A stretch of DNA of 64,000 bases from the NCBI GenBank assembly GCA_043800535.1, contig JAZDMV010000023.1, forward strand, positions 27,264-91,263. Reading direction: 5' to 3'. The position numbers were made by a program, and so were the translations under genes. Origin of the DNA: a bacterium. GTDB lineage: Bacteria > Patescibacteriota > Minisyncoccia > Portnoybacterales > GWB1-42-6. Each line of letters begins with the position of its first letter. The first letter of the stretch is position 1. A model generated the notes under the pieces. That model saw only the letters and a list, made by a program, of their open reading frames with translations. It was not told the origin of the DNA and did not search any database. Below are positions 5,227 through 57,391 of this stretch, piece by piece.

Positions 5227-5344
5227 TTTTTTATTTCTTGCATCTGAAAATTTTGTAAGAAAATTTTCTTTAAAAATCGCGCATGGCGAAAAATTTATAA
5301 GAAAATCGAGACAAGCGAGGCGTGTAGAAAATTGGCGACGGAGC

Positions 5345-5367
5345 CGCGCCGCCGCAACGGCGGCGCG
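5345..5367 (+). other. Perfect GC hairpin in the intergenic region (10-bp stem CGCGCCGCCG / CGGCGGCGCG, loop CAA).
   Basis: Read directly. It is flanked by the repeated TCTTGCATCTGAAAATTTTGYAAGAAAAT motif (5237..5265). Confidence 0.5.
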
Positions 5368-5481
5368 AGTGCGACTTTACGAGCCAATTTTTAGCCGAAC
5401 GAATCCGATTTTCTAAAATTTTTGCGCCCTGCGCGTGGTCTTTTGTTACTTTTCTGCCATCAGAAAAGTAACAATAAAACT

Positions 5482-7602
5482 ATGTCTGAAACCTTAACCA
5501 AATCTATCGCCGCCTTGCTTTTAATTTTCATGATCTCCGTGGCCTATTACTCCATGCTTGATGATTCTGCCATCATGGACGAAGTTTCGCATCTGCCGGC
5601 CGGATATTCATATGTCAGCCAGGGCGATATGCGCATTAACCCCGAACATCCGCCGCTTGTCAAAGACCTTGCCGGCGGCGCTGTATGGCTCGCTTCAAAA
5701 ATTTATAATATCCAAATTGCTTTCCCTTCAAGCAGCCCTGCCTGGCTCGCCGAAACACGAGGCGCTATAAACAGCCAGTGGAATTTTGGCTTTGATTTTA
5801 TGTATGGCCAGGGCAATCCGGCTGATTTTATGCTTTTTGTCGGCCGCCTGCCTATGCTTTTTATCCTGCTGGTTCTGGGCATTTATATTTTCCGCTGGAC
5901 AAAAGAAATTTTTGGCAAACAGGCGGCGCTTCTGGCTTTATTTCTTTTCGCTTTTTCGCCGACCTTTCTTGCGCACGGCCGGCTCGTTACCACTGATGTG
6001 GCCGCCTCTGCCGCAGTTTTTATCGCTACCTACTATTTTATCCACTGGCTGAAAAAACCAACTGTCTGGACTCTGTTTTTTGCCGGTCTTTGGTTTGGCA
6101 TCGCGCAGCTCGCAAAATTTTCGATGTTTCTGCTCGTATTGCTATTTGGATTTATGGTTATTGCCTGGATAATACATAAATTAATCAGCAATAGAGTCCA
6201 AGCGCCCGAACCTCTTTCTGACGCTTTATACAAAACGCCCGGCAAAGATAATAAAAAAGCGACATCATTCAAGATCGCATGGCGGCATCTTGGTGGCCTT
6301 GTCTTTATCTTTCTTTTTGGCTATGGTTTTGTCGTCACGCCTGTATACTATTTTCACATAAAGAATCTTCCCGCGGAAAAACAACGCCAGGAAGCTGTCT
6401 GCGTTCTTGCGTCCTACGCGGGCGGACCGCTGGATGTAAAAACTCTGGAACAAAAGTCAAGCGAGTGGTGCATGCAAAAGCCGGAGATTGAATTAGCCGC
6501 CTGCAAAACCCCAAGCCGTATCACGCGCTGTCCTGCCGACATTGCCGTTTGGATGTCTGATAAAGCCACACCCTTGCGTGCCTTTGGCCATTATCTTTTG
6601 GGTCTTGTCATGGTTGTCCAGCGGGCAAGCGGAGGCAACACAACTTTCTTCTTAGGCCAGATTTCTGCTGCGGGCTGGAAATCATATTTCCCGATTATTT
6701 ATCTGATCAAAGAACCTCTGACATTGCATATTTTTACACTCATTGCTCTTATCACCCTTGCATATTACTTTGTCCAAAAGAAAACAAAAAAGACAGAGAT
6801 TCCTTTACCGCCGAGCCAAGCCAGCATGCTTAGTAAAATTTCTGGCTGGCTTGAAAAAAATATCGATGCCTTTGCCATGCTCGTTTTTATCGCGCTTTAC
6901 TGGATAACCAGCTTAAGCTCTAACTTAAACATCGGAGTCCGCCACATCCTGCCGACTTTTCCGCTCATCTACACGCTTGTTTCCGGCCAAATAATTTATT
7001 GGGCGAGGAATAAAAAACATGAACCGCTGTCTACATTCCAGCCAAATAGCGCCTTGTCAGCGCAACCACACGTATTATATGATACACGGATTAGTAAACA
7101 AACCAATTTCACGCCTCTAGTGAAGAAACAAAAAACTTACCTTTACGCAAAATACGGAGCAATTTCCGCTTTGGTCGGCTGGCAGGCGGTTTCCGTTATG
7201 GCCGTTTTCCCGTCATTTTTGGCATATTTCAACGAAAGCGTCGGTGGGCCGGGACAGGGATATAAATATGTGGCTGATTCAAATCTTGACTGGGGACAAG
7301 ATTTAGTACGCCTCAAAAGCTGGGCCAGTCAGCAAGGTATCCAGAGACTTTATGTTGACTATTTTGGCGGCGGAGATGCCAAATATTATTTGGGCGATAA
7401 GTTCCAGCCCTGGTGGGGAGACCGAAATCCGTCTGACCTGAAAAGCGGCGACTGGCTTGCTGTTTCAGCCACGTTTCTGCAGGGCGGCCGCGGAAAACCC
7501 GCGCCTGGTTATAAAGACAAAACGGGCTACTACGACTGGCTTAACAACTTGCAGCCAAAAGCGGTTATCGGATATTCCATCTTTGTTTATCAGATACCCT
7601 GA
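5482..7602 (+). CDS. Phospholipid-carrier-dependent glycosyltransferase of the PMT/GT39 family.
   Basis: A DEVSH...PEHPPLVK first-loop motif is present, with many TM helices. The likely start is the ATG at 5482 (MSETLTK) rather than the ORF-track start at 5422. Confidence 0.65.
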   Translation: MSETLTKSIAALLLIFMISVAYYSMLDDSAIMDEVSHLPAGYSYVSQGDMRINPEHPPLVKDLAGGAVWLASKIYNIQIAFPSSSPAWLAETRGAINSQWNFGFDFMYGQGNPADFMLFVGRLPMLFILLVLGIYIFRWTKEIFGKQAALLALFLFAFSPTFLAHGRLVTTDVAASAAVFIATYYFIHWLKKPTVWTLFFAGLWFGIAQLAKFSMFLLVLLFGFMVIAWIIHKLISNRVQAPEPLSDALYKTPGKDNKKATSFKIAWRHLGGLVFIFLFGYGFVVTPVYYFHIKNLPAEKQRQEAVCVLASYAGGPLDVKTLEQKSSEWCMQKPEIELAACKTPSRITRCPADIAVWMSDKATPLRAFGHYLLGLVMVVQRASGGNTTFFLGQISAAGWKSYFPIIYLIKEPLTLHIFTLIALITLAYYFVQKKTKKTEIPLPPSQASMLSKISGWLEKNIDAFAMLVFIALYWITSLSSNLNIGVRHILPTFPLIYTLVSGQIIYWARNKKHEPLSTFQPNSALSAQPHVLYDTRISKQTNFTPLVKKQKTYLYAKYGAISALVGWQAVSVMAVFPSFLAYFNESVGGPGQGYKYVADSNLDWGQDLVRLKSWASQQGIQRLYVDYFGGGDAKYYLGDKFQPWWGDRNPSDLKSGDWLAVSATFLQGGRGKPAPGYKDKTGYYDWLNNLQPKAVIGYSIFVYQIP

Positions 7603-7641
7603 TAAGATCTGAAATTTCTTATCGCCTTGTCTTATAAGCTA

Positions 7642-7664
7642 ATGCCCCGCACGGTGCGGGGCAT
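7642..7664 (+). terminator. Intrinsic terminator after the PMT-family gene. It is built on the recurrent CCCCGCACGGTGCGGGG palindrome.
   Basis: ATGCCCCGCAC-g-GTGCGGGGCAT followed by TTTATAATTATTT. Confidence 0.6.
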
Positions 7665-7710
7665 TTTATAATTATTTCCTTTAAACTATCAGCTGTTTTT
7701 TATTAACTGT

Positions 7711-8565
7711 TTACTGCCAATATTTATAATACACCCTATCCTCAACCCTTAAATCCACATACTCCAACAGGGCGCGTTTTTCCTTTATTTTTTCCTCCAA
7801 TACTCTTTTTAAAGCGTTGATCTGCGATGACGGCGATTTAGTTGTATCCAGCAGAATTCGCCAGCCCTCCGGCGTCAAAATCTCCAAATCGCCAAGCGTC
7901 TGCGAAGCGATTATAAAATCAGTCAAAATCATGTTCACGCCAGCCAGCTCTTTTTTTACCGCCAGGATAAATTTTAAGCGTTCCGGATTTGCGACCGTGC
8001 GGCGCAAATCAAGATCCTGGGAAGTTTTATCATAGACAGTCGGCACTGCCCCGCCACTTAAAATTGGAGCGTTTTTAAAGATAAACCCTTCTGAGTCGAC
8101 AAAAAAACAACTTTCAGCCGATGGTAAACTCGCCTGAACTGCTTGCGTGACCGATGAGGTGGAAATTTCTTCGTTCTCGGGCGCAGGTACACGACACCAG
8201 ATGGCAGATGCCTGCCGTTCCTCAATTTTAATTATGGCCGAGTGCTCAAAGGGCTTTTCTGTCAAAACAACGCTTTTAATCTCTGGAAACGCTCGAATGA
8301 TTGCGCCGATTATTTTTTTCTGGGGAAAAAGAATTAAATTATCTTTGGGAATTTTGTTAAAAAATTTTTCTCCGATTATCGAACGGCTTATTTCTTCGAT
8401 GCTCTTTGCGTCAACCTCTTTTGTTCCTTCTACCTTTATGTTGCTGATTTTGGCAAAAGACGTGAAAACTATCAGGTAAAAAATGCTGGCAATTAAAAAC
8501 AAAAGGAAACCGCCCGCAACGGCTATTTTCCAAACCCATTTTTTACTTCCTCCTTTAGATTTCAT
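7711..8565 (-). CDS. ftsQ: Cell division protein FtsQ/DivIB (POTRA domain).
   Basis: There is an N-terminal TM followed by a POTRA-like region, and the gene sits directly upstream of ddl in a division and cell-wall context. Confidence 0.6.
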   Translation of the reverse strand: MKSKGGSKKWVWKIAVAGGFLLFLIASIFYLIVFTSFAKISNIKVEGTKEVDAKSIEEISRSIIGEKFFNKIPKDNLILFPQKKIIGAIIRAFPEIKSVVLTEKPFEHSAIIKIEERQASAIWCRVPAPENEEISTSSVTQAVQASLPSAESCFFVDSEGFIFKNAPILSGGAVPTVYDKTSQDLDLRRTVANPERLKFILAVKKELAGVNMILTDFIIASQTLGDLEILTPEGWRILLDTTKSPSSQINALKRVLEEKIKEKRALLEYVDLRVEDRVYYKYWQ

Positions 8566-8591
8566 TTTCCATGTTTCTTATTTATAGACTT

Positions 8592-9512
8592 TCATTTTTC
8601 CATCGCTAATTCGATCAACCTGTCCAGCAGTTCCGGAAAGCTAATTCCTGCTGCCGCGGCTGCCTGCGGCACAAGCGATGTTTCGGTCATGCCCGGAATC
8701 GTGTTTATTTCAAGCACAAACGGTTTTGAGCCGTGTAAGATCATATCTGTCCTCGTCACGCCGCGACACCCGAGGCTCATGTGCGTTTTCACTGCCAGTG
8801 CCTGTATTTTTTTTGTCAAAACCGAGTCAATGCGAGCGGGACAAATTTCTTCCGAGCCGCCCTTGTCATACTTTGCTTTGTAATCAAAAAAACAGGAGAC
8901 TTTGGGCTTTATCTCAATAACCGGCAAGGCGCGGGGCTTGCTGTTGCCAAGAACCGCAACGGTCATCTCGCGACCTTCAATAAAATCCTCAACCAAAACT
9001 TTTTGCCCGAAAACCATCGCTTTTTTTATCGCACCCTTGAATTGTCCCGGCCCTTGCACAATTGTCACGCCGACAGACGAACCCTGCGCCAGCGGTTTGA
9101 CAACGCAGGGAAACTTTACTTTTTTCAGCGAAATGTGATTGTTTTTTGCAAAAATAAAATATTTTGGGCTGGCGATTTTTTCCTTCTTGAAAATCTTTTT
9201 TGCCATCTCTTTGTCCATCGCTAAAGCCGAAGCCAAAACGCCGGAAAAGACATAAGGTATCCCAAACAATTCAAACATCCCTTGAATCGTGCCGTCCTCG
9301 CCAAAAGAGCCGTGCAAAGCCGGGAAAACTACATCAACTTTTTTTCTTCTCAAAAGATCAACCAGCTTGAGCAGGTGTTTTGCCGGATCAAACAAAAAAA
9401 CCTCGTACTTATCTTTGGCGAGATTCTTCTTTATCATCTGCCCGGTCTTAATTGAAATATCCCGCTCGGCTGATTTCCCTCCGCTCAGCAAAGCGACTCT
9501 AATTTTTTTCAT
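8592..9512 (-). CDS. ddl: D-alanine--D-alanine ligase.
   Basis: The sequence MKKIRVALLSGGKSAERDISIKTG...HGSFGEDGTIQG shows an ATP-grasp ligase pattern. Confidence 0.85.
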   Translation of the reverse strand: MKKIRVALLSGGKSAERDISIKTGQMIKKNLAKDKYEVFLFDPAKHLLKLVDLLRRKKVDVVFPALHGSFGEDGTIQGMFELFGIPYVFSGVLASALAMDKEMAKKIFKKEKIASPKYFIFAKNNHISLKKVKFPCVVKPLAQGSSVGVTIVQGPGQFKGAIKKAMVFGQKVLVEDFIEGREMTVAVLGNSKPRALPVIEIKPKVSCFFDYKAKYDKGGSEEICPARIDSVLTKKIQALAVKTHMSLGCRGVTRTDMILHGSKPFVLEINTIPGMTETSLVPQAAAAAGISFPELLDRLIELAMEK

Positions 9513-9518
9513 GTCTCG

Positions 9519-10811: not shown

Positions 10812-10931
10812 ACATTAACAGATTAAACACGGATTTATTACGGATTTTACACAAATTACACGGATTCCGCTAACTGACAGATTTATATATGTAATCTGCG
10901 CCCATCAGTAAACAATCTGTGTGGCATCTAT

Positions 10932-12371
10932 TTATTTTGGCTTCATCGTCGGAAACAAAATTACTTCTCGGATATTAAAACTGTTTGTCAAAAGTTGAAC
11001 GAGCCGGTCAACCCCCAAGCCAAGGCCGGCGGCGGGCGGCATGCCGTATTCCAGCGCGTCTATAAAGTCCTGGTCAAAACGTTGCACGTCTTCGTCTCCA
11101 CGATGCGCTTCCTGCTCTTTCATTCTTTTTGCCTGCTCAATCGGGTCATTAAGTTCAGAATACGCGTTCATCAATTCAAGCCCTCCCGCAATAAACTGGA
11201 ATCTGGCCGCCTCCTTTGGATTTTTTTCGGACTCTTTTGCCAGAGGCGACATTTCAAGCGGATGATTTGTGACAAAGGTCGGCTGGATGATTTTTGGCCT
11301 GATAGTTTTGAATAGCTCGTCTGTCAGCTTGCAATCATGCATATCATTTTCGGCTTTGCCTCCCGCTTTGGCCAACGCCGCTTCCAGTTCCCCCCGGCCT
11401 GCTCTTCCGATATCCAGGCCGTAATGTTCCATTATTAAATCACACATAGAAACTCTTTTAAACGGCGGCGAAAAATTTATTTTTTGTCCCTGAAATTCAA
11501 TTTCTTTATGTGGTATCAAAAATTCAAATAATTTTTCAACCAGTGCAATTAAATCTTCGTAGTCGGCGTACGCCCAGTAAAATTCCAGCATCGTAAAATC
11601 AGGATTGTGAAGCTTATCCATCCCTTCATTGCGAAAACAGCGACCGATTTCATAAACTTTTTCAAACCCACCCACTAGTAGTCTTTTAAGGTATAGTTCC
11701 GGCGCCACTCGCATGAAAAGTTGCATATCAAGCGCATTTAAATGAGTGACAAAAGGATTTGCCAGCGCGCCGCCCGGCAGGGGCTGCAGGATCGGCGTCT
11801 CTACTTCAACAAAATCTTCCGAATCAAAAAAGGTGCGCAAACCTCGGATTATCTTGCTCCGCAGCAGAAAACGGCGCAAAACATCCTTATTCATCAGCAA
11901 ATCAAGATACCGCTTACGGAATCTTTCTTCAACGTCTTTCAGGCCGTGCCATTTTTCCGGCAGCTGATTCATGGATTTTGCAAGAAGCTGGAATTTTTTA
12001 ACCAAAAGTGTACGCTCGCCTTTCTGGGTCTTAAAAGGCTCGCCCGAAACCCAAATAAAATCACCGACATCAATATTGTCGGCAAAAAAATCATAATCTT
12101 TTTCTCCTATTTCATCTTTTTTAAAAAAAAGCTGGATTTGGCCAGAAGAATCCTCGATGTTGGCAAAGGTTGAGCCGCCGTGGCCACGAAGCGAGCGCAG
12201 GCGGCCAGCCAGGCTAACATGCATCTTTTCTTTTTCCAAAATATCAAATTCATCAAGAACTTCCGCAACAGACATTTTTGTGCCGGTTTTGCCCGGATAC
12301 GGATTTACGCCGGCGGCTTTGATTTGCTCCAGTTTTTTCAGCCGGTCAGATTTTATTTTATCTAAAGACAT
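10932..12371 (-). CDS. lysS: Lysyl-tRNA synthetase (class II).
   Basis: An OB-fold anticodon-binding domain is followed by class II motifs. The length of 479 aa is appropriate. Confidence 0.85.
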   Translation of the reverse strand: MSLDKIKSDRLKKLEQIKAAGVNPYPGKTGTKMSVAEVLDEFDILEKEKMHVSLAGRLRSLRGHGGSTFANIEDSSGQIQLFFKKDEIGEKDYDFFADNIDVGDFIWVSGEPFKTQKGERTLLVKKFQLLAKSMNQLPEKWHGLKDVEERFRKRYLDLLMNKDVLRRFLLRSKIIRGLRTFFDSEDFVEVETPILQPLPGGALANPFVTHLNALDMQLFMRVAPELYLKRLLVGGFEKVYEIGRCFRNEGMDKLHNPDFTMLEFYWAYADYEDLIALVEKLFEFLIPHKEIEFQGQKINFSPPFKRVSMCDLIMEHYGLDIGRAGRGELEAALAKAGGKAENDMHDCKLTDELFKTIRPKIIQPTFVTNHPLEMSPLAKESEKNPKEAARFQFIAGGLELMNAYSELNDPIEQAKRMKEQEAHRGDEDVQRFDQDFIDALEYGMPPAAGLGLGVDRLVQLLTNSFNIREVILFPTMKPK

Positions 12372-12657
12372 AAATATTATGTAAAAAATACTAACTGCGA
12401 ATAAATTAATCTACTCTTGCATCTGAAAATTTTGCAAGAAAATCGCGGCAAGACGAGCGTAGCGAGAAGTTTACGAAGTAATTTTTAGTGAGACAAGCTA
12501 TGATTTTATCAAAATTTTCAGCTGCAAGCAGTCTTTTGGCTACCCCGGCACCAGAACGCCTATGGCGTTCGGTGCGGGGCATGCTTTTCTACTTTACCCC
12601 GTACCGAGCTTGCTCTGGTACTGGGGCTGCCAGAAAAGTAGCTCCTACGGAAAAAAA

Positions 12658-13107
12658 TTACTTAATAGATATTATTTTATATGTCGCCTTGCCTCTAGGT
12701 GTTTCCACTTCCACCATCTCCCCCACCTTGCGCCCCAGAAATGCTTTTCCGAGCGGCGATTCATTTGATATTTTGCCATCAGATGGCTTTGCTTCTTCAG
12801 AACCAACAATGGTAAAATTGTATTTTTCGCCCTGCGAACTCACTTCAATAGTGCCTCCGATCTGCACAGCTGAACTTCCGCCGTTTTTGCTGATGACAAC
12901 GGCATTTTTAAGCAATTCTTCCAGCTCTAAAATTTTGCCCTCGTTAAACGACTGGGCTTCTTTGGCCTGCAAATATTCCGTATTTTCAGATAGATCACCC
13001 AAAGATTTAGCGTCTTCAAGGCGCTGTGCTATTTCCTGCCGTTTGAGCTTTAGCTCCTCCAGCTCTTTTTTTATCTGCTCCAATCCTTCTTTGCTGAGAT
13101 ATTTCAT
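12658..13107 (-). CDS. greA: Transcription elongation factor GreA.
   Basis: A coiled-coil N-terminus (LEDAKSLGDLSENTEY) is followed by a GreA C-terminal domain. Confidence 0.85.
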   Translation of the reverse strand: MKYLSKEGLEQIKKELEELKLKRQEIAQRLEDAKSLGDLSENTEYLQAKEAQSFNEGKILELEELLKNAVVISKNGGSSAVQIGGTIEVSSQGEKYNFTIVGSEEAKPSDGKISNESPLGKAFLGRKVGEMVEVETPRGKATYKIISIK

Positions 13108-13209
13108 ATTATTGACGGATTATGCGAATGGCTTCGCCTGCAAATCTTGCGAATAATTATTCGCATAATTAGCAACCGTAGCAACGACATTCGCGCTATT
13201 CGTTAACCT

Positions 13210-21756: not shown

Positions 21757-22863
21757 TTATATATTATACCCCACTTTCTTCAAAAAATCTATCAGCTCCC
21801 GCCTGAATCTTTCTTCTGAAAACTTCTCCGCCCGTTTATGGATAACAAGAGGGCTATAATTGGTGAGATTCTCGCGCAGGCGGCGGACTCCGTCCGCCAA
21901 AATCTCCGGCACCGCGTCGTAAAAAAATTCACCCGTTACGCCCGGAATTATTGTTTCAAGCGCGCCACCTCTGCCAAAAGCCAGAACCGGCTTGCCCCAA
22001 CCCATTGCCTCAACGGGCGCTATGCCAAAATCATCTTCGCCCGCAAAAACGAAAGCGGTGCAATTCTTCAGGTATTTATTTTTTTCCTCCTCGTTTCTTT
22101 CGCCTAAGAATTTAATTGTCGGGCCAGCCAGCTCCTCTAATTTTTCTCTTTCCGGCCCGTCACCGATTATTAAAAGCAGCAATTTCAAACGATTAAACGC
22201 CTCAATTGCCAGGTCAATGCGTTTATAGGGTGTCAGCTGCGATACAATCAGAAAATAATTTTCATCTTTTGCTGTCCTGAATTGTCCAAACGTCGGCAGA
22301 CAAACAGGCGGGTAAATAATAAAAGCGTTTCGGCGATAATACTTTTGTATTTTTTCTCTTGTCGCTCTGGAATTAGCGATAAAATAATCGGGCCGCCGCG
22401 ATGAGGATTTATCCCATATCCTCAAATAATGTACTACTAAAGTTGCCAAGGCCCGGCGAACTGGCCCAAAGTCTTGCTCGCGGATATATTGCTTGTTCCA
22501 GTCCCACAGAAACCTTGAAGGCGCGTGACAGTAGCAAATGTGCGTGGTGCCGGGCCGGGTGATTATGGATTTGGCGAAAGCCGAAGACGAAGAAATAACC
22601 AGATCGAATTCCCGCAGATCAAATGTTTCGGCCGCTACTGGTAAAAATGGCAGAAGGTGTTTCTGCCGGCGCCTGATAAATTTGGGCAGCTTTTGCAAAA
22701 AAGATGGCCGTATGTCTGCCCCTGCCAAAACTCCGCCCATTTTTTCTTCGTCGTATAAAAGAGTGTAAATCGGAGCTTCAGGAAAAATTTCATGCAATTT
22801 TAAAAGAACCCTCTCCGCCCCTCCTAATCTAATTAAATAATCGTGGACTAAAGCGACCTTCAT
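21757..22863 (-). CDS. Glycosyltransferase family 4 (GT-B).
   Basis: The C-terminal EX7E-like region is FVFAGEDDFGIAPVEAMGWGKPVLA. The start was chosen at the ATG that abuts the upstream stop, whereas the ORF track extends to 22908. Confidence 0.7.
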   Translation of the reverse strand: MKVALVHDYLIRLGGAERVLLKLHEIFPEAPIYTLLYDEEKMGGVLAGADIRPSFLQKLPKFIRRRQKHLLPFLPVAAETFDLREFDLVISSSSAFAKSIITRPGTTHICYCHAPSRFLWDWNKQYIREQDFGPVRRALATLVVHYLRIWDKSSSRRPDYFIANSRATREKIQKYYRRNAFIIYPPVCLPTFGQFRTAKDENYFLIVSQLTPYKRIDLAIEAFNRLKLLLLIIGDGPEREKLEELAGPTIKFLGERNEEEKNKYLKNCTAFVFAGEDDFGIAPVEAMGWGKPVLAFGRGGALETIIPGVTGEFFYDAVPEILADGVRRLRENLTNYSPLVIHKRAEKFSEERFRRELIDFLKKVGYNI

Positions 22864-23993
22864 TTTTCCGTCAAAAATTGCAGCGTCTCCTTCGCGCATT
22901 TTTTCCAACTAAACCGTTTTAAATTTTCGTATCCCAATTCTATCAGCTTATCACGCGCCTGCTTGTCGTCAATCAATTTGTAAATAGTTTCCGCGATCTC
23001 TTCAGAGTTTTTTGGACTAACAAGCAATGCCGAATTGTTTACCACTTCCGGCATGCTTGATATATTCGAAGTGACTACGGGAATACCAGCGGCCTGCGCC
23101 TCCAAAATCGGCATGCCAAAACCCTCATAGAGCGAAGGGAAAAGAAATACGTCTGCACCGGACAACAATTTTTGCTTTTCATCTTCGCTGACATAGCCAA
23201 GTTCGTGGACTTGAAACTTGAAACTTGAGACTTGAGACCTTATTTTATCATAGCCGAATCCCGGCGAGCCGACCAAAACCAATTCATGCGGGATTTTGTA
23301 CTTCTCTTTTAATGTATTATACGCCTCAAGAATCCCCAAAACATTCTTTTTCAATTCAATTCGTCCTATATACAACAAATATGGTCTGTCTACATCTGTC
23401 ATCCCGGGCTTGACCCGGGATCCAGGCTGTGGACTCTGACTTTTGTCAGATTTGCAAAATGACACTCCGTGATGTACTACGGTAATTTTTGATTCATCTG
23501 CCTCATATAGCTTCATCAAATCATTTTTCGTACTTTGGGACACCGCAATAATTTTTCTTGCATGCTTGACCGCATATTTTGTGCTCCATCGCAAATATTG
23601 CCGGTGACGCCACGGATACATTTCGGGAAAATACTCGTATTCCAGGCCATGAATCGTAACGACTGAATTTTTCGGATGCACCAACGGCAAAACATGCACT
23701 GGAATAAAAAGCGCATCGGGCTTATTAAAAACCATCTCCGACGCCAATCTCAACTGCGTCCACATCGGCAAAGGCCATTTTAATTTTTTGACCTGAAAAT
23801 TCTCGGGCAATTCAAAGTCAAATCTGGGTAAACCCGCCTCCGCTCTTCGAGCTACGGCGGGCAAGTATAACAAAAATCGATGCTCCCCAGCTTCTGGCAG
23901 CATCGTTAAATGTTTTATCAACTGGTATACATACTCTTCAACGCCCGTTCGCGGCTGTTTTATCGCCGCCGCAGCGTTAATTCCGATAGTCAT
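22860..23993 (-). CDS. Glycosyltransferase family 4 (GT-B) with an in-frame palindromic insertion in the interdomain linker.
   Basis: FLFPSLYEGFGMPILEAQAAGIPVV. The 66-bp GC-rich element at 23398..23463 lies inside the ORF. Confidence 0.7.
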   Translation of the reverse strand: MTIGINAAAAIKQPRTGVEEYVYQLIKHLTMLPEAGEHRFLLYLPAVARRAEAGLPRFDFELPENFQVKKLKWPLPMWTQLRLASEMVFNKPDALFIPVHVLPLVHPKNSVVTIHGLEYEYFPEMYPWRHRQYLRWSTKYAVKHARKIIAVSQSTKNDLMKLYEADESKITVVHHGVSFCKSDKSQSPQPGSRVKPGMTDVDRPYLLYIGRIELKKNVLGILEAYNTLKEKYKIPHELVLVGSPGFGYDKIRSQVSSFKFQVHELGYVSEDEKQKLLSGADVFLFPSLYEGFGMPILEAQAAGIPVVTSNISSMPEVVNNSALLVSPKNSEEIAETIYKLIDDKQARDKLIELGYENLKRFSWKKCAKETLQFLTEK

Positions 23994-30520: not shown

Positions 30521-30600
30521 CCCTACGAATTTACTAATTTCTACAAATATTACGGATATAATATTTGTAAGATTGGTAATGATTCGTAATTTAGTAGGGT
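30521..30600. repeat. AT-rich palindromic intergenic element, family CCCTACGAATTTACTAA...TTAGTAGGG (copy 1).
   Basis: About 85% identical to 32786..32880. It has an internal perfect inverted repeat TACAAATATTA / TAATATTTGTA. Confidence 0.6.
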
Positions 30601-32785: not shown

Positions 32786-32880
32786 CCTACGAATTCACTA
32801 ATTTTTACATATATTACCTGCCGGCAGACAAACGAATATAATATTTGTAAAATTGGTAATGATTCGTAATTTAGTAGGGT
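32786..32880. repeat. AT-rich palindromic intergenic element, family CCTACGAATTCACTAA...TTAGTAGGG (copy 2).
   Basis: The 3' 45 nt (ATATAATATTTGTAAAATTGGTAATGATTCGTAATTTAGTAGGGT) are nearly identical to the copy at 30521..30600. Confidence 0.6.
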
Positions 32881-32881
32881 T

Positions 32882-40449: not shown

Positions 40450-41802
40450 TTACTGAATTACTCCTCCACCCAATAGTTCACCTTTTTTGCTATAGAACAC
40501 CGCGCTCTGTCCCGGCGTCACCGCCCGCTGGGGCTTGCCGAAAATTACACGCACAGTGTCATTGCGAGCCCCGACGTGAAATCGGGGCGTGGCAATCCTG
40601 TAAATAACAGCCGGACTAGCTTCGCTCTTATATCTTATTTTTATCAAAACTTCCTGCGGCAATTTTGCCTGCCCTCCGTAGCCTTGCCTGCCCGCAGTAG
40701 CTTTAGCGAAGGAGGGGCGGAGGCGGGGCGCTTGCCTGCTTGTCCAATTTATATTGCCCGCCGCCAGTTCTTTGCTATACAGATCTTTTTCATCGTTGCT
40801 GACATATAAAATATTTTTGCGCGTGTCTTTTTTAACCACCCACCACGGCCCCTGGTTCAATGGAATATTTTTACGCTGCCCGATGGTATAAAACGCTAGA
40901 CCCTGATGTTCACCCAAAATTTTACCATCTTTCAATTTGTCATTCCCGCGAAAGCGGGAATCCAGACTGGATACCGGATCAAGTCCGGCATGACACGAAT
41001 TATAATCTACTATTTTTCCTAGCTTCATTTTTATATATTTTTTCAAAAAGCTTTCAATATCGCGCGCCACAAAACAAAGATCAAAGCTCTCGCCCCGCCT
41101 GAAAGACAGTCTCCATTTTTTTGCTAATTTATACACTTCCTCTTTCGTATAGTCGGCCAAAGGAAATAATACGCGACTCAATTGCCTCTGTGTCAACGCA
41201 TACAAAAAATATGACTGATCCTTATCTTTATCCTTGGCCTTAAAAATTGTATACGTGTCATTGCGAGGAGCCCCGCACCGTGCGGGGCGACACGGCAATC
41301 CCAAAATGATATCGCCAACGGCTGTTTGCCTCGGGATTGCTTCGCCCCGACTTACATCGGGGCTCGCAATGACGCTACTTTGTATTTTCGCATAATGCCC
41401 GGTGGCAATATAATCAGCCCCCATGCCGAGCGCTTTTTTGAATAAAAGCCCAAACTTAATTTTTTTATTGCACACAACGCACGGATTTGGCGTTCGCCCG
41501 GCGTCGCTCTCGCGCAAAAAATGATCAACTACTTCTTTTTTAAATTCTTTCCCCAGGCGCAGGATATAAAAAGGGATGTCTAGTTTTGAAGCCACGTCTC
41601 TAGCCGCCTGCTCTGCACCCGCGCTACAGCAAGTATTTGTAGCCGCAAAGCGTGCATTCGGCTCTGCCCAGAAACGCATAAAAACGCCAACGACATCATA
41701 TCCTTGCTTTTTTAATAACGCCGCTGCCACAGAAGAATCAACCCCACCAGACATTGCAACTATTACTTTTCCCTTTGATTTGCGCATATTCTCTTCTATC
41801 AT
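40450..41802 (-). CDS. mnmA: tRNA-specific 2-thiouridylase MnmA carrying four in-frame palindromic-element insertions.
   Basis: VIVAMSGGVDSSVAA PP-loop...GADYIATGHYA...KDQSYFLY...AVTPGQSAVFY. It is about 83 aa longer than E. coli MnmA. The ORF-track start at 41970 is probably too far upstream, and the ATG at 41802 (MIEENMRKSKGKV) follows a terminator. Confidence 0.75.
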   Translation of the reverse strand: MIEENMRKSKGKVIVAMSGGVDSSVAAALLKKQGYDVVGVFMRFWAEPNARFAATNTCCSAGAEQAARDVASKLDIPFYILRLGKEFKKEVVDHFLRESDAGRTPNPCVVCNKKIKFGLLFKKALGMGADYIATGHYAKIQSSVIASPDVSRGEAIPRQTAVGDIILGLPCRPARCGAPRNDTYTIFKAKDKDKDQSYFLYALTQRQLSRVLFPLADYTKEEVYKLAKKWRLSFRRGESFDLCFVARDIESFLKKYIKMKLGKIVDYNSCHAGLDPVSSLDSRFRGNDKLKDGKILGEHQGLAFYTIGQRKNIPLNQGPWWVVKKDTRKNILYVSNDEKDLYSKELAAGNINWTSRQAPRLRPSFAKATAGRQGYGGQAKLPQEVLIKIRYKSEASPAVIYRIATPRFHVGARNDTVRVIFGKPQRAVTPGQSAVFYSKKGELLGGGVIQ

Positions 41803-41843
41803 TTTATTTTTTAGAATAACATCATTTTTGCCAAAAAGAAAAG

Positions 41844-41870
41844 CCCCGGATGAACATTGTTCATCCGGGG
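41844..41870 (-). terminator. Intrinsic terminator after the MYG1-like gene.
   Basis: Perfect 13-bp inverted repeat CCCCGGATGAACA-t-TGTTCATCCGGGG, followed on the minus strand by CTTTTCTTTTTGG. Confidence 0.6.
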
Positions 41871-41884
41871 CCACAAAAAGGGTA

Positions 41885-44253: not shown

Positions 44254-46068
44254 TTATAATTTTACCGCTTCTCCTTCATTCAAAGCGCCTCCATTCCCAT
44301 TTTCTTCTTTCTTTATCTCTGGCTCTTTCTCTTTCTCCTCCTCGGTTCTATCTCCCAAAACCTCGCTTAACGTTTCGCGAAGTTCGCTTAAATTGACCTC
44401 TTTCTTTTTCCGCCTCATATCAGAAAACTTTGACGGCTCTTTTTTTGCCGCCTCGGCTAAAGAAACCGGCGCGCCCGTGTCTTTTATTAAAACTTCGCCC
44501 GAAGCGCTTGGATTTGACGGCCGCCTCGGCGGGTTAGAATTTTGCGCAAAATTATCCCGTCTTGGAAAATCGCCATGCGGCTGCGGCGTCCCTTTTTGCT
44601 CCTGCGAACGCACCTGAGCCAAACAATCCTGACAATAGACGGGCCTGACGCCGTCGGGCTTAAATTTCAAGCGGATTTTTTTGCCACAGCTACTGCAAAC
44701 CGCATCAAACGAGGGCTCTTCTGGATGAAATTCTGCCTTGTGCGCCGGCGAAATTTCGTGGCTCAAGACCATTTTTCCTTCTTTCTCACTTTCTATCACT
44801 CCGCTCCACTTGGCAATTTTTTCTTCAACTTCCTGGCGGCTCGTGCTGTAGCGTTCCCTAGAGACACGAATTATTGTTTCGCGGTGTGAAATTTCCGGCG
44901 GTGCGATCGGCGGCAGAGTCGTGGCGGAAAAGGGCCGCGAAGCAATGCCGTCTATCATTAATTTCAGATATATCTGGGCAAATCCTAAATTAACAAGGTC
45001 ATTAGCCGAAAACTCGGGCATAAATTCTTTTTCAAGAAATTCAGCATCAGTCGCGCCGACCCGAAAAGTAAGCATGCTCCCCACGTTCCCAAAAACCGCA
45101 TCAGCCACCGGTTCAACCATCTGCGTTATATACTGATGCGCCAAAACCAGATCAAGACGGTATTTCCTGGCTTCTGACAAGATCGCGGCAAAAGATTCTG
45201 TGGCAAAATTCTGAAATTCGTCAACGTAAAGATAAAAATCCTTGCGCTCTTCCTCGGGAACATCAATACGCGACATGGCGGCTAATTGCAGCCGAGTAAT
45301 CAGCATTGCGCCCAGCAGCGCCGAATTATCCTCGCCAATGCGGCCTTTGGACAAATTCATTATAAGAATTTTTTGCGAATCCATCGCCTCTCTGATATTG
45401 ATGGATGACGTTGTCTGGCCGACGATATTACGAATTAATGGACTTGTCAAAAACTGACCTACTTTATTTTGAATAGGCGCCACTGCTTCGGCCATGAATC
45501 TGTCCGGATATTTTGCAAATTCATCAACCCAAAATGCCTTAACAACCGGGTCAGCAATTTTTTCCACCACTTTTTTCCGGTATTCTTTATCGACTAAAAT
45601 TCGCATCGTTCCAAGAAGGGTTGAGCCGGGGTATTCAAGAAGCGCTAAAATCGCGTTGCGCAAAACGTATTCCAGCCGCGGCCCCCAGGATTCGGCCCAC
45701 AACTTTTTAAAAACGCCGACCAGGCCAGAGGCGACAAGGTGCCTGTGTCCAGGGTCAACTTTTTCAATGACATTAAAAGCTATCGGAAAATCGAGGTCCG
45801 CCGGATTAAAATATATGACATCATTCAATCTGTTTGACGGAATAAAATCAAGCATCTTCTCGGCAAATTCGCCGTGCGGGTCCACTATCCCGATCCCTTT
45901 GCCCGACTGGATATCCTGAATTGCCATATTTTCCAAAAGCGTAGTTTTGCCCATGCCAGTTTTACCAATAACATAAAAATGGCGGCGGCGATCGGCCGTT
46001 TTTATTCCGAATTTTACCCGCTGGTCGCGGAAATTCGTTTCAGCAAAAAATGTGATATCGTCAGCCAT
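44254..46068 (-). CDS. P-loop ATPase of the FtsK/HerA/VirB4/VirD4 (AAA_10/TrwB-like) family with a C-terminal CxxC-x17-CxxC zinc ribbon and a disordered acidic tail.
   Basis: KTADRRRHFYVIGKTGMGKTTL Walker A, and IVDPHGEF. It is a clear paralog of the ATPase half of 1..2167. Zinc ribbon: CSSCGKKIRLKFKPDGVRPVYCQDC. Confidence 0.75.
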   Translation of the reverse strand: MADDITFFAETNFRDQRVKFGIKTADRRRHFYVIGKTGMGKTTLLENMAIQDIQSGKGIGIVDPHGEFAEKMLDFIPSNRLNDVIYFNPADLDFPIAFNVIEKVDPGHRHLVASGLVGVFKKLWAESWGPRLEYVLRNAILALLEYPGSTLLGTMRILVDKEYRKKVVEKIADPVVKAFWVDEFAKYPDRFMAEAVAPIQNKVGQFLTSPLIRNIVGQTTSSINIREAMDSQKILIMNLSKGRIGEDNSALLGAMLITRLQLAAMSRIDVPEEERKDFYLYVDEFQNFATESFAAILSEARKYRLDLVLAHQYITQMVEPVADAVFGNVGSMLTFRVGATDAEFLEKEFMPEFSANDLVNLGFAQIYLKLMIDGIASRPFSATTLPPIAPPEISHRETIIRVSRERYSTSRQEVEEKIAKWSGVIESEKEGKMVLSHEISPAHKAEFHPEEPSFDAVCSSCGKKIRLKFKPDGVRPVYCQDCLAQVRSQEQKGTPQPHGDFPRRDNFAQNSNPPRRPSNPSASGEVLIKDTGAPVSLAEAAKKEPSKFSDMRRKKKEVNLSELRETLSEVLGDRTEEEKEKEPEIKKEENGNGGALNEGEAVKL

Positions 46069-51084: not shown

Positions 51085-51210
51085 CCCCGCCTAGAAGTTA
51101 CTCAAAAAATTGCCGACATTTACAAGAGCAAGCCGCAGGCGATTCGCTGGAAAACATTCACCAACCAAACACGTTGTCGAACTTCTGGCGGGGTCAAAAC
51201 TTTTTTTGTT
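51085..51210 (+). ncRNA. Candidate ~125-nt structured RNA closed by a 14-bp terminal stem and followed by a U-run. Its identity is unknown.
   Basis: CCCCGCCtAGAAGTT...(90 nt)...AACTTCTGGCGGGG, then TCAAAACTTTTTTTGTTG. It lies in the secD upstream intergenic region and has internal GCGATTCGC and GGAAAAC features. Confidence 0.3.
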
Positions 51211-51215
51211 GTTGA

Positions 51216-51244
51216 GCGGCGCCCCGCACGGTGCGGGGCGCCGC
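51216..51244. repeat. GC-rich palindrome GCGGCGCCCCGCAC-g-GTGCGGGGCGCCGC.
   Basis: The CCCCGCACGGTGCGGGG core recurs at 7645..7661 and, with the central GG replaced by CC, inside the mnmA insertion (41271..41287). Confidence 0.6.
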
Positions 51245-51319
51245 GGCTATCTTCCCTGTAATGATCAGACGCCTGAAAAAAATCAGGCCGGACAAAAATG
51301 TCCGACCTGCCTTTACAAC

Positions 51320-52048
51320 TTACCTGATTTTTTTCATCAGGGCTCTGATCTTTACAATCTGATCCCCTAGGTTTTCTCTCTTAGCAATTCCCATCGCCTC
51401 CAAACAAAAGGACATAGCCACTATTTTGTAATCCACGGGCCGGCTTTTTTTCCGGCGCAGCATATGCGCTCCTAACGCCCTAAGGACCCTGACGCGGGTG
51501 TCGCTTTTTACACTTACCATCCTCTGTGCCTCACCAAAATAAATTCCCCCGTCATCAGCTTTCTGCCTGTCTCTTATCTCGCCAAGTTTTATCTTAAGCA
51601 GAGCCAAGCTGTCAGTACAGATATCACTCCTTGACAGTGCTTCGTTGATGCATTTAAGCGCATCTTCGTAATGCCCGGGCCTGAAAAACGCGGCGGCCAG
51701 AATGCTTGCTCTGATATCAAGCTGGCCCACGGTCATGTTTTTAAGACCGACAACCTCGTCCGACAATCTTAACGCCTTGCACAGCGCCCAGATCGCCCTT
51801 GGCAGCCAAAAAATAGCCAGCAGCCAATTCTGCCTTGCCCGTGCCAAAGCATTGCCCCAGGCAGTATAATACGTGCTTGAAAGCGCCATCAAACCCTCAA
51901 GCTCCTTACCCTTCGCCTTCAGATATTTATAGCGCAGGCGACTCCAGGCAATCGCGCCACCCTTGCCCCAAAGTTTCCCCTGCCGGGTCAATGTATAGAC
52001 CTTCTGTCCTACATCATCTCCGTAATCATCTCTTGCTTTTTCGTCCAT
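51320..52048 (-). CDS. Hypothetical protein of 242 aa.
   Basis: ORF with no recognised domain. Confidence 0.4.
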   Translation of the reverse strand: MDEKARDDYGDDVGQKVYTLTRQGKLWGKGGAIAWSRLRYKYLKAKGKELEGLMALSSTYYTAWGNALARARQNWLLAIFWLPRAIWALCKALRLSDEVVGLKNMTVGQLDIRASILAAAFFRPGHYEDALKCINEALSRSDICTDSLALLKIKLGEIRDRQKADDGGIYFGEAQRMVSVKSDTRVRVLRALGAHMLRRKKSRPVDYKIVAMSFCLEAMGIAKRENLGDQIVKIRALMKKIR

Positions 52049-54672: not shown

Positions 54673-57391
54673 GGCACTTCTTATATTTCTTTCCACTTCC
54701 GCACCAGCAAGGGTCGTTGCGGCCCAGCTTAGCTGGGCTTGAGCCCCGCTGAGCGGGGCGGCCAATGTTTTTGTTACCTGAGGCAGAAGCAGATGGGTCG
54801 GTGCCACGATTTTCGCGCGCTTGCGCCAAAGGCAATTCTTGTCGCGGAGCGTCTTTTGCCAGCACGACTTTATAGATTGATTTTACAATATTTGACTCAA
54901 TCGCCGCCAGCAGATCCCGAAATAATCTGTGGCCTTCGTTTTTGTATTCAACCAGCGGGTCTTTCTGGCCATAAGCTCTTAATCTGACGCTGTCGCGCAG
55001 ATGCTCCATATTATCCAAGTGATCCATCCAGAAAATATCGATCGTCCGCAGGGTTAAAAACTTTTCAATTTCGCGCATGCTTTGCGGCCCGACTTCTTTT
55101 TCTTTCAGTTCATAGGCATTTCTGGCGGCTTCCAGCAAATAATTTATTATCTCATCCCGCTCTTTTAATTCCCGAATTTTTTGCTGGGCGTTAATTGGCA
55201 AAGGAAATATGGAATTTGCCGCTTCATAAATTTCTTTCAGATTCCATTCGCTCGCGTCTCCGGCCGTATTAAATTCCACCAGCCCCCGAACTTCTTTTCC
55301 TATCCATTCGCTGACCTGTTCGCGCAGATCAGCCCGTTTGTCATCGCGAGGAGCCGAGTCATCGAGGTGACGCGGCGATCCCGTGTTATGATTTTCTGCG
55401 GGATTGCTTCGCTCGCCCCCTCCAAGCGGGGTCTCGCTCTCAATGACACGACTTTTGCTTTCCAATATTTCTTTTCTCCATCTATAGATCCTCTCTCTCT
55501 GCTTATTCATCACGTCATCGTAATCAAGGACGTGTTTCCTGACATCAAAATTATATCCCTCGATCTTGGCCTGCGCGCCTTCAATCGCTTTTGATATCAT
55601 TCCGTTTTCTATTGCTTCGTCTTCCGGCATTTTCAAAACTTCCATCATCCGCTTAATTCTGTCCGAGCCAAAAATACGCATTAGATCGTCCTCCAACGAA
55701 ACAAAAAATTGTGAAGAACCCGGGTCGCCTTGACGTCCCGCTCTGCCGCGCAACTGGTTATCAATTCTCCGCGCCTCATGGCGCTCCGTGCCCAAAATAT
55801 GTAGGCCACCTGCCTCCACAACGCCTTCGCCAAGTTTAATATCAACGCCGCGGCCCGCCATATTGGTTGCCACTGTCACCGCGCCTTTTTGCCCTGCCTG
55901 CGCGATGATCTGCGCTTCCTGTTCGTGGTTTTTAGCATTCAAAAGCTGATGCGGAATGCCTTCTTTTTTAAGATAAGCGGATAAAAGTTCGTTTTTTTCT
56001 ATGGAAACAGTGCCCACAAGCACTGGCTGGCCAATTTTGTGTTTCTCTTTTATTTCCCGAACCACGGCGATAAATTTGCCGTTTTCCGTGCGATAGATCC
56101 TGTCACGCAGATCCTGACGCACCATGGGCTTGTTTGTCGGCGCAACCACCACCTCAAGCTTATAAACTTTGAAGAATTCCTCCGCGTTTGTTGCCGCGGT
56201 TCCCGTCATGCCGGCCAATTTATCATACATACGAAAATAATTCTGGAACGTAATTGTGGCCAATGTGCGCGACTCCTGCTGAACTTTAACGCCTTCTTTT
56301 GCCTCGATCGCCTGATGAAGGCCTTCTGAATACCGGCGGCCAAACATCAAACGGCCCGTAAAATCGTCCACAATGATAGCTTCACCATCTTTCACCACAT
56401 AATCCTTATCAAGTTTGAAAAGCACTTCCGCCCGCAATGCCTGTTCTAAATGATGAACATATCTTATGCCGCCTTCATTATAAATATCCATGCCCAGAAT
56501 TTTTTCAACTTTCGCAATGCCTTCCTCGCTTAAGCTAACCGTCCGCATTTTTTCATCAATTGTGTAATCTTCTTCTGCTTTTAATTTGGGCACGATCCTG
56601 GAAAAAGTTTCATATAGTTTTCCGGAATCAGCATCCGGCGCTGAAATAATAAGCGGCGTCCGCGCCTCGTCGATCAAAATTGAATCCACCTCGTCCACTA
56701 TCGCGTAGTGATGGCCTCGCTGAGCCATTTGCGACAGATCCTGCACCATGTTGTCCCGCAGATAATCAAATCCAAATTCGTTATTTGTGCCGTAAGTAAT
56801 ATCTGCCTGATAAGCAAGCGGGCGCGGCACTTCTTTTAAATTTTGCATTTCAACTGTGACTTCGTTTCTGTCCGGGCCGGAATGCGGTTCAAAAAGATAT
56901 GCTTTATCATGCACGACACAGCCGACCGAAACACCGAGTGCCTGATAAATCGGCCCCATCCAGTTGGTGTCACGTTTGGAAAGATAGTCGTTGACAGTGA
57001 CAACGTGCACGCCTTTGCCTTCCAGAGAGTTTAAATAAATTGCCAGGGTTGAGGCCAAAGTTTTGCCTTCGCCTGTTTTCATTTCCGCGATACGCCCCTG
57101 ATGTAAGACAGTCCCACCAAGAAGCTGCACATCAAAATGCCGCTGACCAAGCGTTCGTTTTGAAGCCTCGCGCACCGCGGCAAATGCCTCGGGCAGAAGC
57201 TCGTCCAGCGCCTCACCTCCGCCAACTGGCGGATTCAGGCGCTTACGAAATTCTTCAGTTTTTCCCTTAAGCTGCGGATCAGAAAGCGCCTCAAATTCTT
57301 TTTCCAACCCGTTGATCTTTTCAACCAACGGCATAAGTCTTGAGGCCTGCCGCTCATCCGCACTGCCGAAAATTTTAGATAGAATAGACAT
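54662..57391 (-). CDS. secA: Preprotein translocase ATPase SecA. It carries an in-frame 36-codon palindromic-element insertion and a C-terminal zinc finger.
   Basis: 909 aa. DEAD-like motor, and the C-terminal [15 protein letters not shown]. The segment [38 protein letters not shown] is encoded by 55340..55447. Confidence 0.9.

Follow-up and report, generated by a model that had tools for sequence, protein, structure and literature searches.

Repetitive extragenic palindromic (REP) sequences and bacterial interspersed mosaic elements (BIMEs) of the Escherichia coli type are short GC-rich palindromes that often follow genes, pair into inverted mosaics and sometimes act in transcription termination and messenger RNA (mRNA) stabilisation. 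Those of the GTAG type have a conserved GTAG at one end of an imperfect palindrome of 20-40 bp and are associated with RAYT (REP-associated tyrosine transposase) enzymes. The CGTC-tagged REPs include dRS3 of Neisseria and the Rickettsia palindromic elements (RPE) RPE-4 and RPE-6; in the four described CGTC families, the stem measures 8-9 bp and the loop 4-5 nt. REPs have been found behind genes as well as within them, and they can be arranged as inverted dimers (Di Nocera et al., 2013, PMC3733652). The NTS and other Ssn-related motifs (SRM) are tied to the GIY-YIG single-stranded DNA nuclease SsnA, for which the upstream tag is essential; the identity of the loop is dispensable for cleavage, and the loop can carry extensions (Chenal et al., 2025, PMC11893778). 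The element considered here is a 19-nt hairpin, GCCCCGCACGGTGCGGGGC, which contains the 17-mer CCCCGCACGGTGCGGGG and was followed in a stretch of 64,000 nucleotides (contig JAZDMV010000023.1, positions 27,264 to 91,263), called the window below. Homology of its MnmA protein places the window in a Parcubacteria-like candidate-phyla bacterium, the nearest relatives being of the Portnoybacteria/Nealsonbacteria type. The same hairpin is present in three different contexts, i.e. behind a glycosyltransferase gene, upstream of secD and inside mnmA, which is well beyond chance. A common origin of the three copies is much the most likely, and recent intragenomic copying of the short hairpin among sites with a GCCCCG/CGGGGC stem is tentatively favoured as the way in which they arose. 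This is a small, genome-private observation within well-known classes, namely terminators, REP-like repeats or repeats resembling miniature inverted-repeat transposable elements (MITE), and RPE-like insertions.

Three sites of one hairpin

The 19-mer was found at 7644-7662 (+), 51221-51239 (+) and 41270-41288 (-). These are three exact sites in 64 kb, where 0.02-0.03 would be expected, and none of 100 dinucleotide shuffles reached the observed count of the 17-mer, which bears out the recurrence beyond chance claimed in the original prediction. The GC content of the window is 44%. The 17-mer itself is exact at 7645-7661 (+), as had been predicted, at 51222-51238 (+), two positions away from the predicted 51224..51240, and at 41271-41287 (-). 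The last site had been described as a variant in which a central GG is replaced by CC. The plus strand there reads CCCCGCACCGTGCGGGG, with a single central base changed from G to C relative to the 17-mer, and because a palindrome of odd length reverse-complements with its central base changed, the site is as exact a copy as the other two, only in reverse orientation, and the supposed variant was a mix-up of strands. Annotators may take this as a warning that a "variant" palindrome can be the other strand. A search for CCCCGCACGGTGCGGGG with up to 2 mismatches returned the three sites, each on both strands, and no additional site of the 19-mer with up to 3 mismatches was found in the 64-kb window.

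The 19-mer is a perfect GC hairpin, GCCCCGCAC-S-GTGCGGGGC. Identity among the three copies ends exactly at the ends of the palindrome; the flanks (AATG/CATT, GCGGCG/CGCCGC and GTGTCG/CTCCTC) are unrelated, and the tetranucleotide GTAG is present in none of them. As a short GC-rich palindrome the hairpin is similar to the REP and BIME sequences of the E. coli type, but it differs from them in the missing GTAG tag, in its number of only 3 copies in 64 kb and in its placement, with one copy intragenic and another upstream of a promoter.

Copy 1 (7644..7662, +; 17-mer 7645-7661) is situated between two convergent genes, 38 nt past the stop of a glycosyltransferase gene (5422..7602, +), rightly recognised as such in the original prediction and here found to be of the PMT_2 type, and 46 nt past the stop of the opposite gene (7711..8565, -). 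Its stem is lengthened to AATGCCCCGCA/TGCGGGGCATT (7641-7665), the palindromic hexamer TTATAA stands on either side of it (7632-7637 and 7666-7671), and the U-rich tail TTATAATTATTT lies 3' of it, which together make up a terminator-like structure at 7632..7680 (+). The RNA fold reaches -21 kcal/mol on either strand (z-scores -3.9/-4.1), and among the terminator-like sites in 5000-14000 copy 1 ranks first (11 pairs, 7 GC, plus TTATAATTAT). With its GC-rich stem-loop of 8-11 bp, its U-rich tract and a location close behind a stop codon where two genes converge, it corresponds to the rho-independent terminators, from which it differs in the interruption of the U tract (AUUUUAUAAUUAUUU). By these sequence rules, copy 1 is a credible intrinsic terminator for the glycosyltransferase gene. 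It would most likely act as terminator and 3'-end protector of the glycosyltransferase mRNA, and weakly in the same way for the opposite gene. The predicted co-option of the palindrome as a terminator thus appears plausible for this copy, whereas copies 2 and 3 have no U tail and do not stand at transcript ends.

Copy 2 is the centre of a perfect palindrome of 29 nt, GCGGCGCCCCGCACGGTGCGGGGCGCCGC (51216..51244; 17-mer 51222-51238), with a fold of -31.6/-33 kcal/mol. Both flanking genes are on the minus strand, and copy 2 lies between the canonical intrinsic terminator of the upstream gene, which encodes 242 amino acids (51320..52048, -), and a promoter-like site for secD (10/12) at 51084-51056 (-). 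The terminator, at 51284..51309 (-), consists of CAGGTCGGACAtttttGTCCGGCCTG followed by ATTTTTTT. At copy 2 a U tail is absent on both strands (the minus-strand RNA continues with UCAACAACAAAAAAAG), and terminator scoring did not call it terminator-like. Because it stands between a terminator of its own kind elsewhere in the spacer and a promoter-like site, lacks a U tail and was not scored as terminator-like, copy 2 is predicted to be no terminator. It is probably located in a poorly transcribed spacer and may be a passenger at the DNA level, probably with no role at the RNA level. The open reading frame (ORF) 51110..51370 (+), which spans copy 2, is a spurious one drawn over the hairpin.

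Copy 3 (41270..41288) lies on the minus strand, which is the coding strand of mnmA, where it encodes CRPARCGAP (residues 171-179 of MnmA); a T-rich tail is absent on both strands. As had been predicted, it is enclosed in a 117-bp element inside mnmA, which spans 41257..41373 (-), is in frame and amounts to 39 codons. From 41373 down to 41257, the element reads GTCATTGCGAG-CCCCGAtgtaagTCGGGG-CGAAGCAATCCC, a 31-nt spacer and GGGATTGCCGTGTCG-CCCCGCACGGTGCGGGG-CTCCTCGCAATGAC. Two hairpin units, their tags facing outward, make up an inverted dimer whose outer ends are 11-bp inverted repeats (GTCATTGCGAG/CTCGCAATGAC); CCCCGAtgtaagTCGGGG is the tip of the left unit (41373-41332), and the tip of the right unit (41301-41257) is the 17-mer. 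The fold of the whole element is -68 kcal/mol (z-score -5.9). In its terminal inverted repeats, small size and lack of coding capacity of its own the element is MITE-like, as originally proposed, but no direct repeat that could be a target-site duplication flanks 41257-41373. The composite occurs once in the window and was found neither in metagenome contigs nor among 1.84 billion representative proteins. A word-index protein search with the 45-amino-acid insert gave no matches, and an exhaustive search gave one unrelated protein of 2807 amino acids only.

The 117-bp element is one of four in-frame palindromic insertions in MnmA (40450-41802, -), which occupy residues 144-182, 270-288, 361-379 and 403-415. 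Insertion D (40556..40599, -) is a single unit, GGATTGCCACG-CCCCGAtttcacGTCGGGG-CTCGCAATGAC, and encodes IATPRFHVGARND, while insertion B (40938..40993, -) is a dimer whose second half, GTCATTCCCGCGAAAGCGGGAATCCAG, is a perfect hairpin of the NTS/dRS3 (SRM) type. In an alignment of 26 MnmA homologs, these four places are hot spots, which in other lineages are filled by other inserts or are empty. The homologs from other Parcubacteria are 343-513 amino acids long, and the 39-codon insert (residues 144-182) is missing from P0011, P0016, P0022 and P0026. In the AlphaFold model of MnmA obtained from this alignment, the predicted local distance difference test (pLDDT) score falls below 50 at 150-177, 274-290, 362-377 and 406-412. 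These segments coincide with the four inserts and lie between confidently folded parts. Since the inserts coincide with segments of pLDDT <50, the CRPARCGAP encoded by copy 3 is predicted to form part of a disordered surface loop of MnmA. The 39-codon insert is in frame and free of stop codons, is placed in a tolerant loop and has insert-free homologs. It is similar to the RPEs, i.e. palindromic DNA inserted in frame, translated and tolerated in surface loops, with insert-free homologs in existence. It differs from them in sequence family and host, and in that here the elements at four hot spots within one gene vary between lineages. In the syntenic relative L132, units are found at the same mnmA sites with entirely different tips. 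The extra segments of MnmA, and likewise those of SecA described below, are repeat insertions.

The unit family and its described relatives

The repeat family that is present in this genome is defined by the basal part of the unit, GTCATTGCGAG...GCAATCC, and not by the 17-mer, which only fills the variable tip slot. The unit is a REP-type hairpin with a TGTC or CGTC tag and the layout GTCATTGCGAG-tip-CGnnGCAATCC. A scan of viral contigs for GTCATTGCGAG-N(8-38)-GCAATCC matched at least 120 contigs, with 181 units from 120 contigs among the matches listed. In these listed units the basal parts are fixed, and the tips range from CGAAG to GC hairpins of 20 nt. The commonest tip is CGAAGCGAA, which contains the mini-hairpin GCGAAGC; the others include CCGAAGG, CCCAAAGGG, GCCGCAAGGC, CCCGCCTAGGCGGG and longer ones, and none of the 181 contains the 17-mer. 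Inverted dimers with tags outward and a length of 66-154 bp make up 30 of the 53 adjacent unit pairs in other contigs.

A profile was built from 165 units. In the window it detected the three mnmA units (E-values from 1e-7 to 3e-5, with 1e-7 and 3e-5 for the two units of the 117-bp element and 4e-7 for insertion D) and a second inverted dimer with different tips, inserted in frame in secA at 55339..55448 (-), with E-values of 0.004 and about 1. No signal was given at 7645, 51222 or 12543 (a further hairpin, discussed below), even at E-values up to 100 and with filters off. The units of the dimer with copy 3, and their neighbours, have an unpaired (C/T)GTC tag directly 5' of a stem that opens with A-T, A-T, and they end in a CC(N) tail (cGTC-AT-TGCGAG...GCA-AT-CCC); copies 1 and 2, which stand alone, do not have this arrangement.

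The mnmA and secA units resemble the CGTC-tagged REPs in the CGTC/TGTC tag, the A-T, A-T start of the stem and the short CC(N) tail, as well as in being mostly inverted dimers inserted in frame into housekeeping genes. They differ in their longer stems and loops (the units measure 40-47 nt, including an additional hairpin of 17-19 nt at the apex), in their core, which is ATTGCGAG...GCAAT rather than ATTCCC...GGGAAT, in an apical slot that holds GC hairpins of very variable length, and in the host, which here is a bacterium of the candidate phyla radiation. The 17-mer itself and the two solo copies are not members of this group.

With the NTS and SRM the units share the layout of HGTC tag, AT, hairpin and AATCC, while the solo 19-mers are without the upstream sequence needed by SsnA. 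The published SRM pattern, HGTCWYN(0-2)YYVSBRHN(0-5)WNVSBRGN(0-2)RNCYNB (pattern and NTS consensus from PMC11893778), has 3 matches in the window against 0.13 expected, among them element B of mnmA (40938-40965) and 23397-23425. The latter match, TGTCATCCCGGGCTTGACCCGGGATCCAG, lies inside a GT4 glycosyltransferase gene (22860..23993, -). None of the GTCATTGCGAG-type units, the one with the 17-mer included, is matched by this pattern. The connection between the two types is provided by contig L157, in which one GTCATTGCGAG...GCAATCC unit and one GTCATTCCGAG...GGAATCC unit have the same tip, CCAGTGCTCACACTGG (6131-6166 and 6362-6400). The replacement of ATTGC/GCAAT by ATTCC/GGAAT around an identical tip is a compensatory change, which ties the ATTGC type to the NTS/dRS3 type. 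The units are related to dRS3, NTS, RPE-4 and RPE-6, i.e. to the Ssn-related hairpin repeats, and the mnmA composite belongs to a known kind, that of CGTC-tagged REP or Ssn-related hairpin dimers inserted in frame like RPEs. Moreover, a loop that is dispensable for SsnA and can be extended fits a free tip slot. In the literature, no paper naming the GTCATTGCGAG family was found, and no relevant paper on REPs, MITEs or intragenic repeats in Patescibacteria or Parcubacteria; searches on palindromic repeats of the candidate phyla radiation returned general papers on REPs and repeats only.

Origin of the three copies

Hairpins of the form GCCCCG-N(3-30)-CGGGGC occur 7 times in the window, where 0.13 are expected, and half of the window's strong GC hairpins begin with GCCCCG; this preference was not seen in the relative L132. 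The seven are the three copies of the 19-mer, the tips of two other mnmA units, one hairpin in the SecA linker and a terminator. The last (41842..41872, -; GCCCCGGATGAACAATGTTCATCCGGGGC followed by TTTTCTTTTT) is the canonical terminator of the gene upstream of mnmA; its outer stem, GCCCCG/CGGGGC, is that of the 19-mer. Two tandem GC hairpins (54722..54759, -) are found in the SecA linker, immediately ahead of the C-terminal SEC-C zinc motif, and the second of them, GCCCCGCTCAGCGGGGC, has a 7-bp stem, GCCCCGC/GCGGGGC, in common with the 19-mer. By a rough estimate, the chance that three of seven such hairpins share the inner 7-mer is about 5e-7 with unconstrained inner bases, and about 2e-3 if they are forced into a palindromic extension of 3 bp. 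It is because chance sharing of the inner CACSGTG is so improbable on either estimate that a common origin of the three copies is much the most likely.

Identity that ends at the stem, unrelated flanks, the lack of diverged copies and a combination of unit and tip that is private to this genome are the reasons why copying of a short tract is favoured, and ranked above transposition of a 19-nt element, although the preference is a tentative one. The copying may have begun with breaks in hairpin loops, followed by template switching or gene conversion. The GCCCCG/CGGGGC stems common to the sites would have served as microhomology, so that only the inner CACSGTG would need to be transferred, either from a terminator into the tip of the unit or from the tip of the unit to the solo sites.

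A further hairpin, CCCCGGCACC and GGTGCGGGG around AGAACGCCTATGGCGTTC (12543..12579), is a probable relative of the 19-mer. It is located between lysS (10932..12371, -) and greA (12658..13107, -) and shares with copy 1 the arms CCCCG(G)CAC and the 12-mer GGTGCGGGGCAT, and a second palindrome is nested at its centre. This nested palindrome shows that hairpin centres are sites of sequence turnover here. A possible homology of its flanks to those of copy 1 (a GTCTT..GCTA match) was rejected as not significant against shuffles. Three GC hairpins had originally been named as related to the 17-mer. All of them exist, the one at 5345-5367 (CGCGCCGCCG...CGGCGGCGCG) exactly where it had been placed and the others at 12543-12579 instead of 12545..12585 and at 12597-12626 (CCCCGTACC...GGTACTGGGG) instead of 12598..12630. 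Only the 12543 hairpin has sequence in common with the 17-mer, and the other two are plain GC hairpins. The ORF 12488..13156 (+), which overlaps greA on the opposite strand and runs through these hairpins, is another spurious frame.

Should the copying model hold, small genomes would be seen to reuse one stable hairpin as a terminator, as a passenger palindrome and as a protein-loop repeat, and it would be shown how the tips of the very common, essentially unnamed GTCATTGCGAG...GCAATCC family diversify. A more general, rather speculative proposal, which is considered unlikely, is that in these streamlined candidate-phyla genomes REP-type tips and free-standing hairpins such as terminators may exchange sequence by loop breakage and microhomology-templated repair. 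If this were true, a terminator could become a mobile tip that enters genes, or a tip could seed terminators and palindromes. Hairpins would then spread in a modular way, which would account for tips that are hypervariable and yet perfectly palindromic.

Several points weigh against the favoured copying of short tracts. The mechanism is read from its end product. The window contains only 3 copies (4 with the 12543 hairpin) in 64 kb of a 192-kb contig, which leaves room for a larger family with conserved flanks elsewhere in the genome. Among 74 long-tip units from other contigs, no tip recurred as a solo hairpin, and the few same-locus matches were other units. The terminator function of copy 1 is likewise deduced from sequence rules, with an interrupted U tract. 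Finally, the TTATAA hexamers that flank copy 1 could represent a duplicated target site, which would favour transposition.

In the latter case, the 19-mer would be a REP-like mobile palindrome, moved in trans by an enzyme of the RAYT or Ssn type, co-opted as a terminator and carried in composites. The three exact copies in both orientations, bounded by the palindrome, would be expected of such an element. The genome does host REP-type units, including SRM/NTS-type hairpins in excess of expectation, and elsewhere REPs are found after genes, as inverted dimers and inside genes (PMC3733652). The solo copies, however, have no GTAG, CGTC or TGTC tag placed as in a REP and no conserved flank; at 19 nt they fall below the length of every described REP (20-40 bp, tag and tail included), no members diverged by 1-3 mismatches exist in the 64 kb, and of the three copies copy 1 alone lies at the 3' end of a gene. 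The unit with the 17-mer has not been propagated either, being absent from the 181 listed units and from 241 million metagenome records, in which ATTGC-N(2-12)-17-mer gave two chance matches, both in high-GC contigs. Copy 3 does belong to a composite MITE-like unit, as had been claimed, one that bears terminal inverted repeats. No GIY-YIG signature (ssn, cd10448) was detected in the six-frame translations of the window, and Pfam scans of 36 of its ORFs, which are not all of them, revealed neither a Y1 transposase or RAYT nor a GIY-YIG gene, a negative that tells little about the rest of the genome. Movement of the 19-mer as a REP is for these reasons considered unlikely. The REP-like family defined by the 17-mer, which stood at the centre of the original prediction, is not upheld on the evidence of this window: tag, flank, unit remnant and diverged copies are all wanting, and outside this genome the 17-mer is a background singleton and forms no family.

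The occurrence of the 17-mer elsewhere bears mainly on independent convergence, i.e. on a genome that selects stable GCCCCG-stem hairpins, for which the paired inner CAC-S-GTG is one of few optima. In species-representative genomes, a search with N at the centre listed at least 118 stretches, a background sample and no census. Among the matches listed, 95 of the 119 sites (any centre base) are in stretches of >=60% GC, one stretch only has two sites, and 31 of the 119 have a T-rich tail, including sites in Peregrinibacteria and Saccharibacteria (the candidate-phyla genomes L060 and L070); in unrelated bacteria, the 17-mer was found in the context of an A-run, a hairpin and a T-run. Such isolated and partly T-tailed hairpins in many unrelated genomes, together with the GCCCCG preference in the window, speak for convergence. 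It is nevertheless regarded as decidedly improbable, since even with the inner part forced to be palindromic the estimate for three identical hairpins among seven is about 2e-3, and the other GCCCCG hairpins of the window have non-palindromic loops. Copies 2 and 3 are outside terminator positions, so that the same selection would not apply to them. Nor is the 17-mer favoured globally: in the viral collection it had 11 matches, while two control palindromes of equal composition had 44 and 27, and this ruled out the candidate explanation of an unusually favoured hairpin. In the Burkholderiales genomes L041, L081, L094, L095, L115, L119 and L033, the 17-mer with central A/T occurs within a repeat, ...gccacgagCCCCGCACAGTGCGGGGctttgcg..., which represents an unrelated family.

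The solo copies might also be decayed units of the GTCATTGCGAG-tip-GCAATCC type, whose bases have mutated away and left the stable tip. In the syntenic relative L132, an equivalent terminator is found at the same place upstream of secD, and a complete GTCATTGCGAG-type unit with a different hairpin stands near the secD start, so that the region orthologous to that of copy 2 does have a full unit; the secD-upstream regions of the window and L132 show no alignment beyond the terminator. A TGTC is present 13 nt upstream of the tip of copy 1, in roughly the geometry of a unit tag, and the flanks of copy 2 (GCG...CGCC) resemble those of a unit (GAG...CGAC). The flanks of copy 2, however, build a perfect 29-nt palindrome of their own, the tips would have been kept perfectly while the bases were completely erased, and the 165-unit profile is silent at both solo copies and at the 12543 hairpin. 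The decay of units has therefore a small chance of being correct. That the 19-bp palindrome is the binding site of a dimeric DNA-binding protein (an operator or nucleoid site) kept by selection is very improbable, for although it is a perfect dyad of operator-like length and copy 2 is about 130-160 bp upstream of the promoter-like site of secD, copy 1 lies between convergent gene ends and copy 3 in a repeat inside a coding region, two of the three copies have no association with a promoter, and the GC-hairpin composition is typical of RNA or single-stranded DNA structures and not of operators.

Further repeats in the window and its relatives

Other repeats were also noticed in the window. An intergenic repeat of about 100 nt is present at 5228-5330 and 12405-12510, in the same orientation though the downstream genes are on opposite strands. 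Its first 40 nt are almost identical in the two copies (TCTTGCATCTGAAAATTTTG[T/C]AAGAAAA) and nearly palindromic, and the copy at 5228 has an extra hairpin of 55 nt that includes the 5345-5367 palindrome. A repeat of 50 nt, 96% identical between 30552-30601 and 32832-32881, forms an AT-rich hairpin (ACGAAT...ATTCGT). Each of its copies directly follows the stop of a minus-strand gene of the ribosomal-protein cluster, which makes it a better example of a palindrome tied to gene 3' ends than the 17-mer.

The 1.4 kb between alaS and mnmA (39029-40449) contain several terminator-like hairpins and no convincing ORF or Rfam family; on the window as a whole, Rfam gave no family at gathering score, and in 39000-40460 it gave nothing but noise below threshold. 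An SLT_2 (transglycosylase) gene occupies the corresponding position in L132 and L134, two syntenic relatives. In the alaS genes of the same two relatives (13430-13488 in L132 and 14100-14170 in L134), two CCCTCTCC...GGAGAGGG hairpins are inserted in frame at the same place, while the alaS of the window is without them; they are another palindromic repeat family inside a housekeeping gene. A direct repeat of 151 nt with 75% identity links 76-226 to 45132-45282, and since one of its copies is inside a TraG/TrwB-like gene (44254..46068, -), the window may begin, at its left edge, with a partial paralog.

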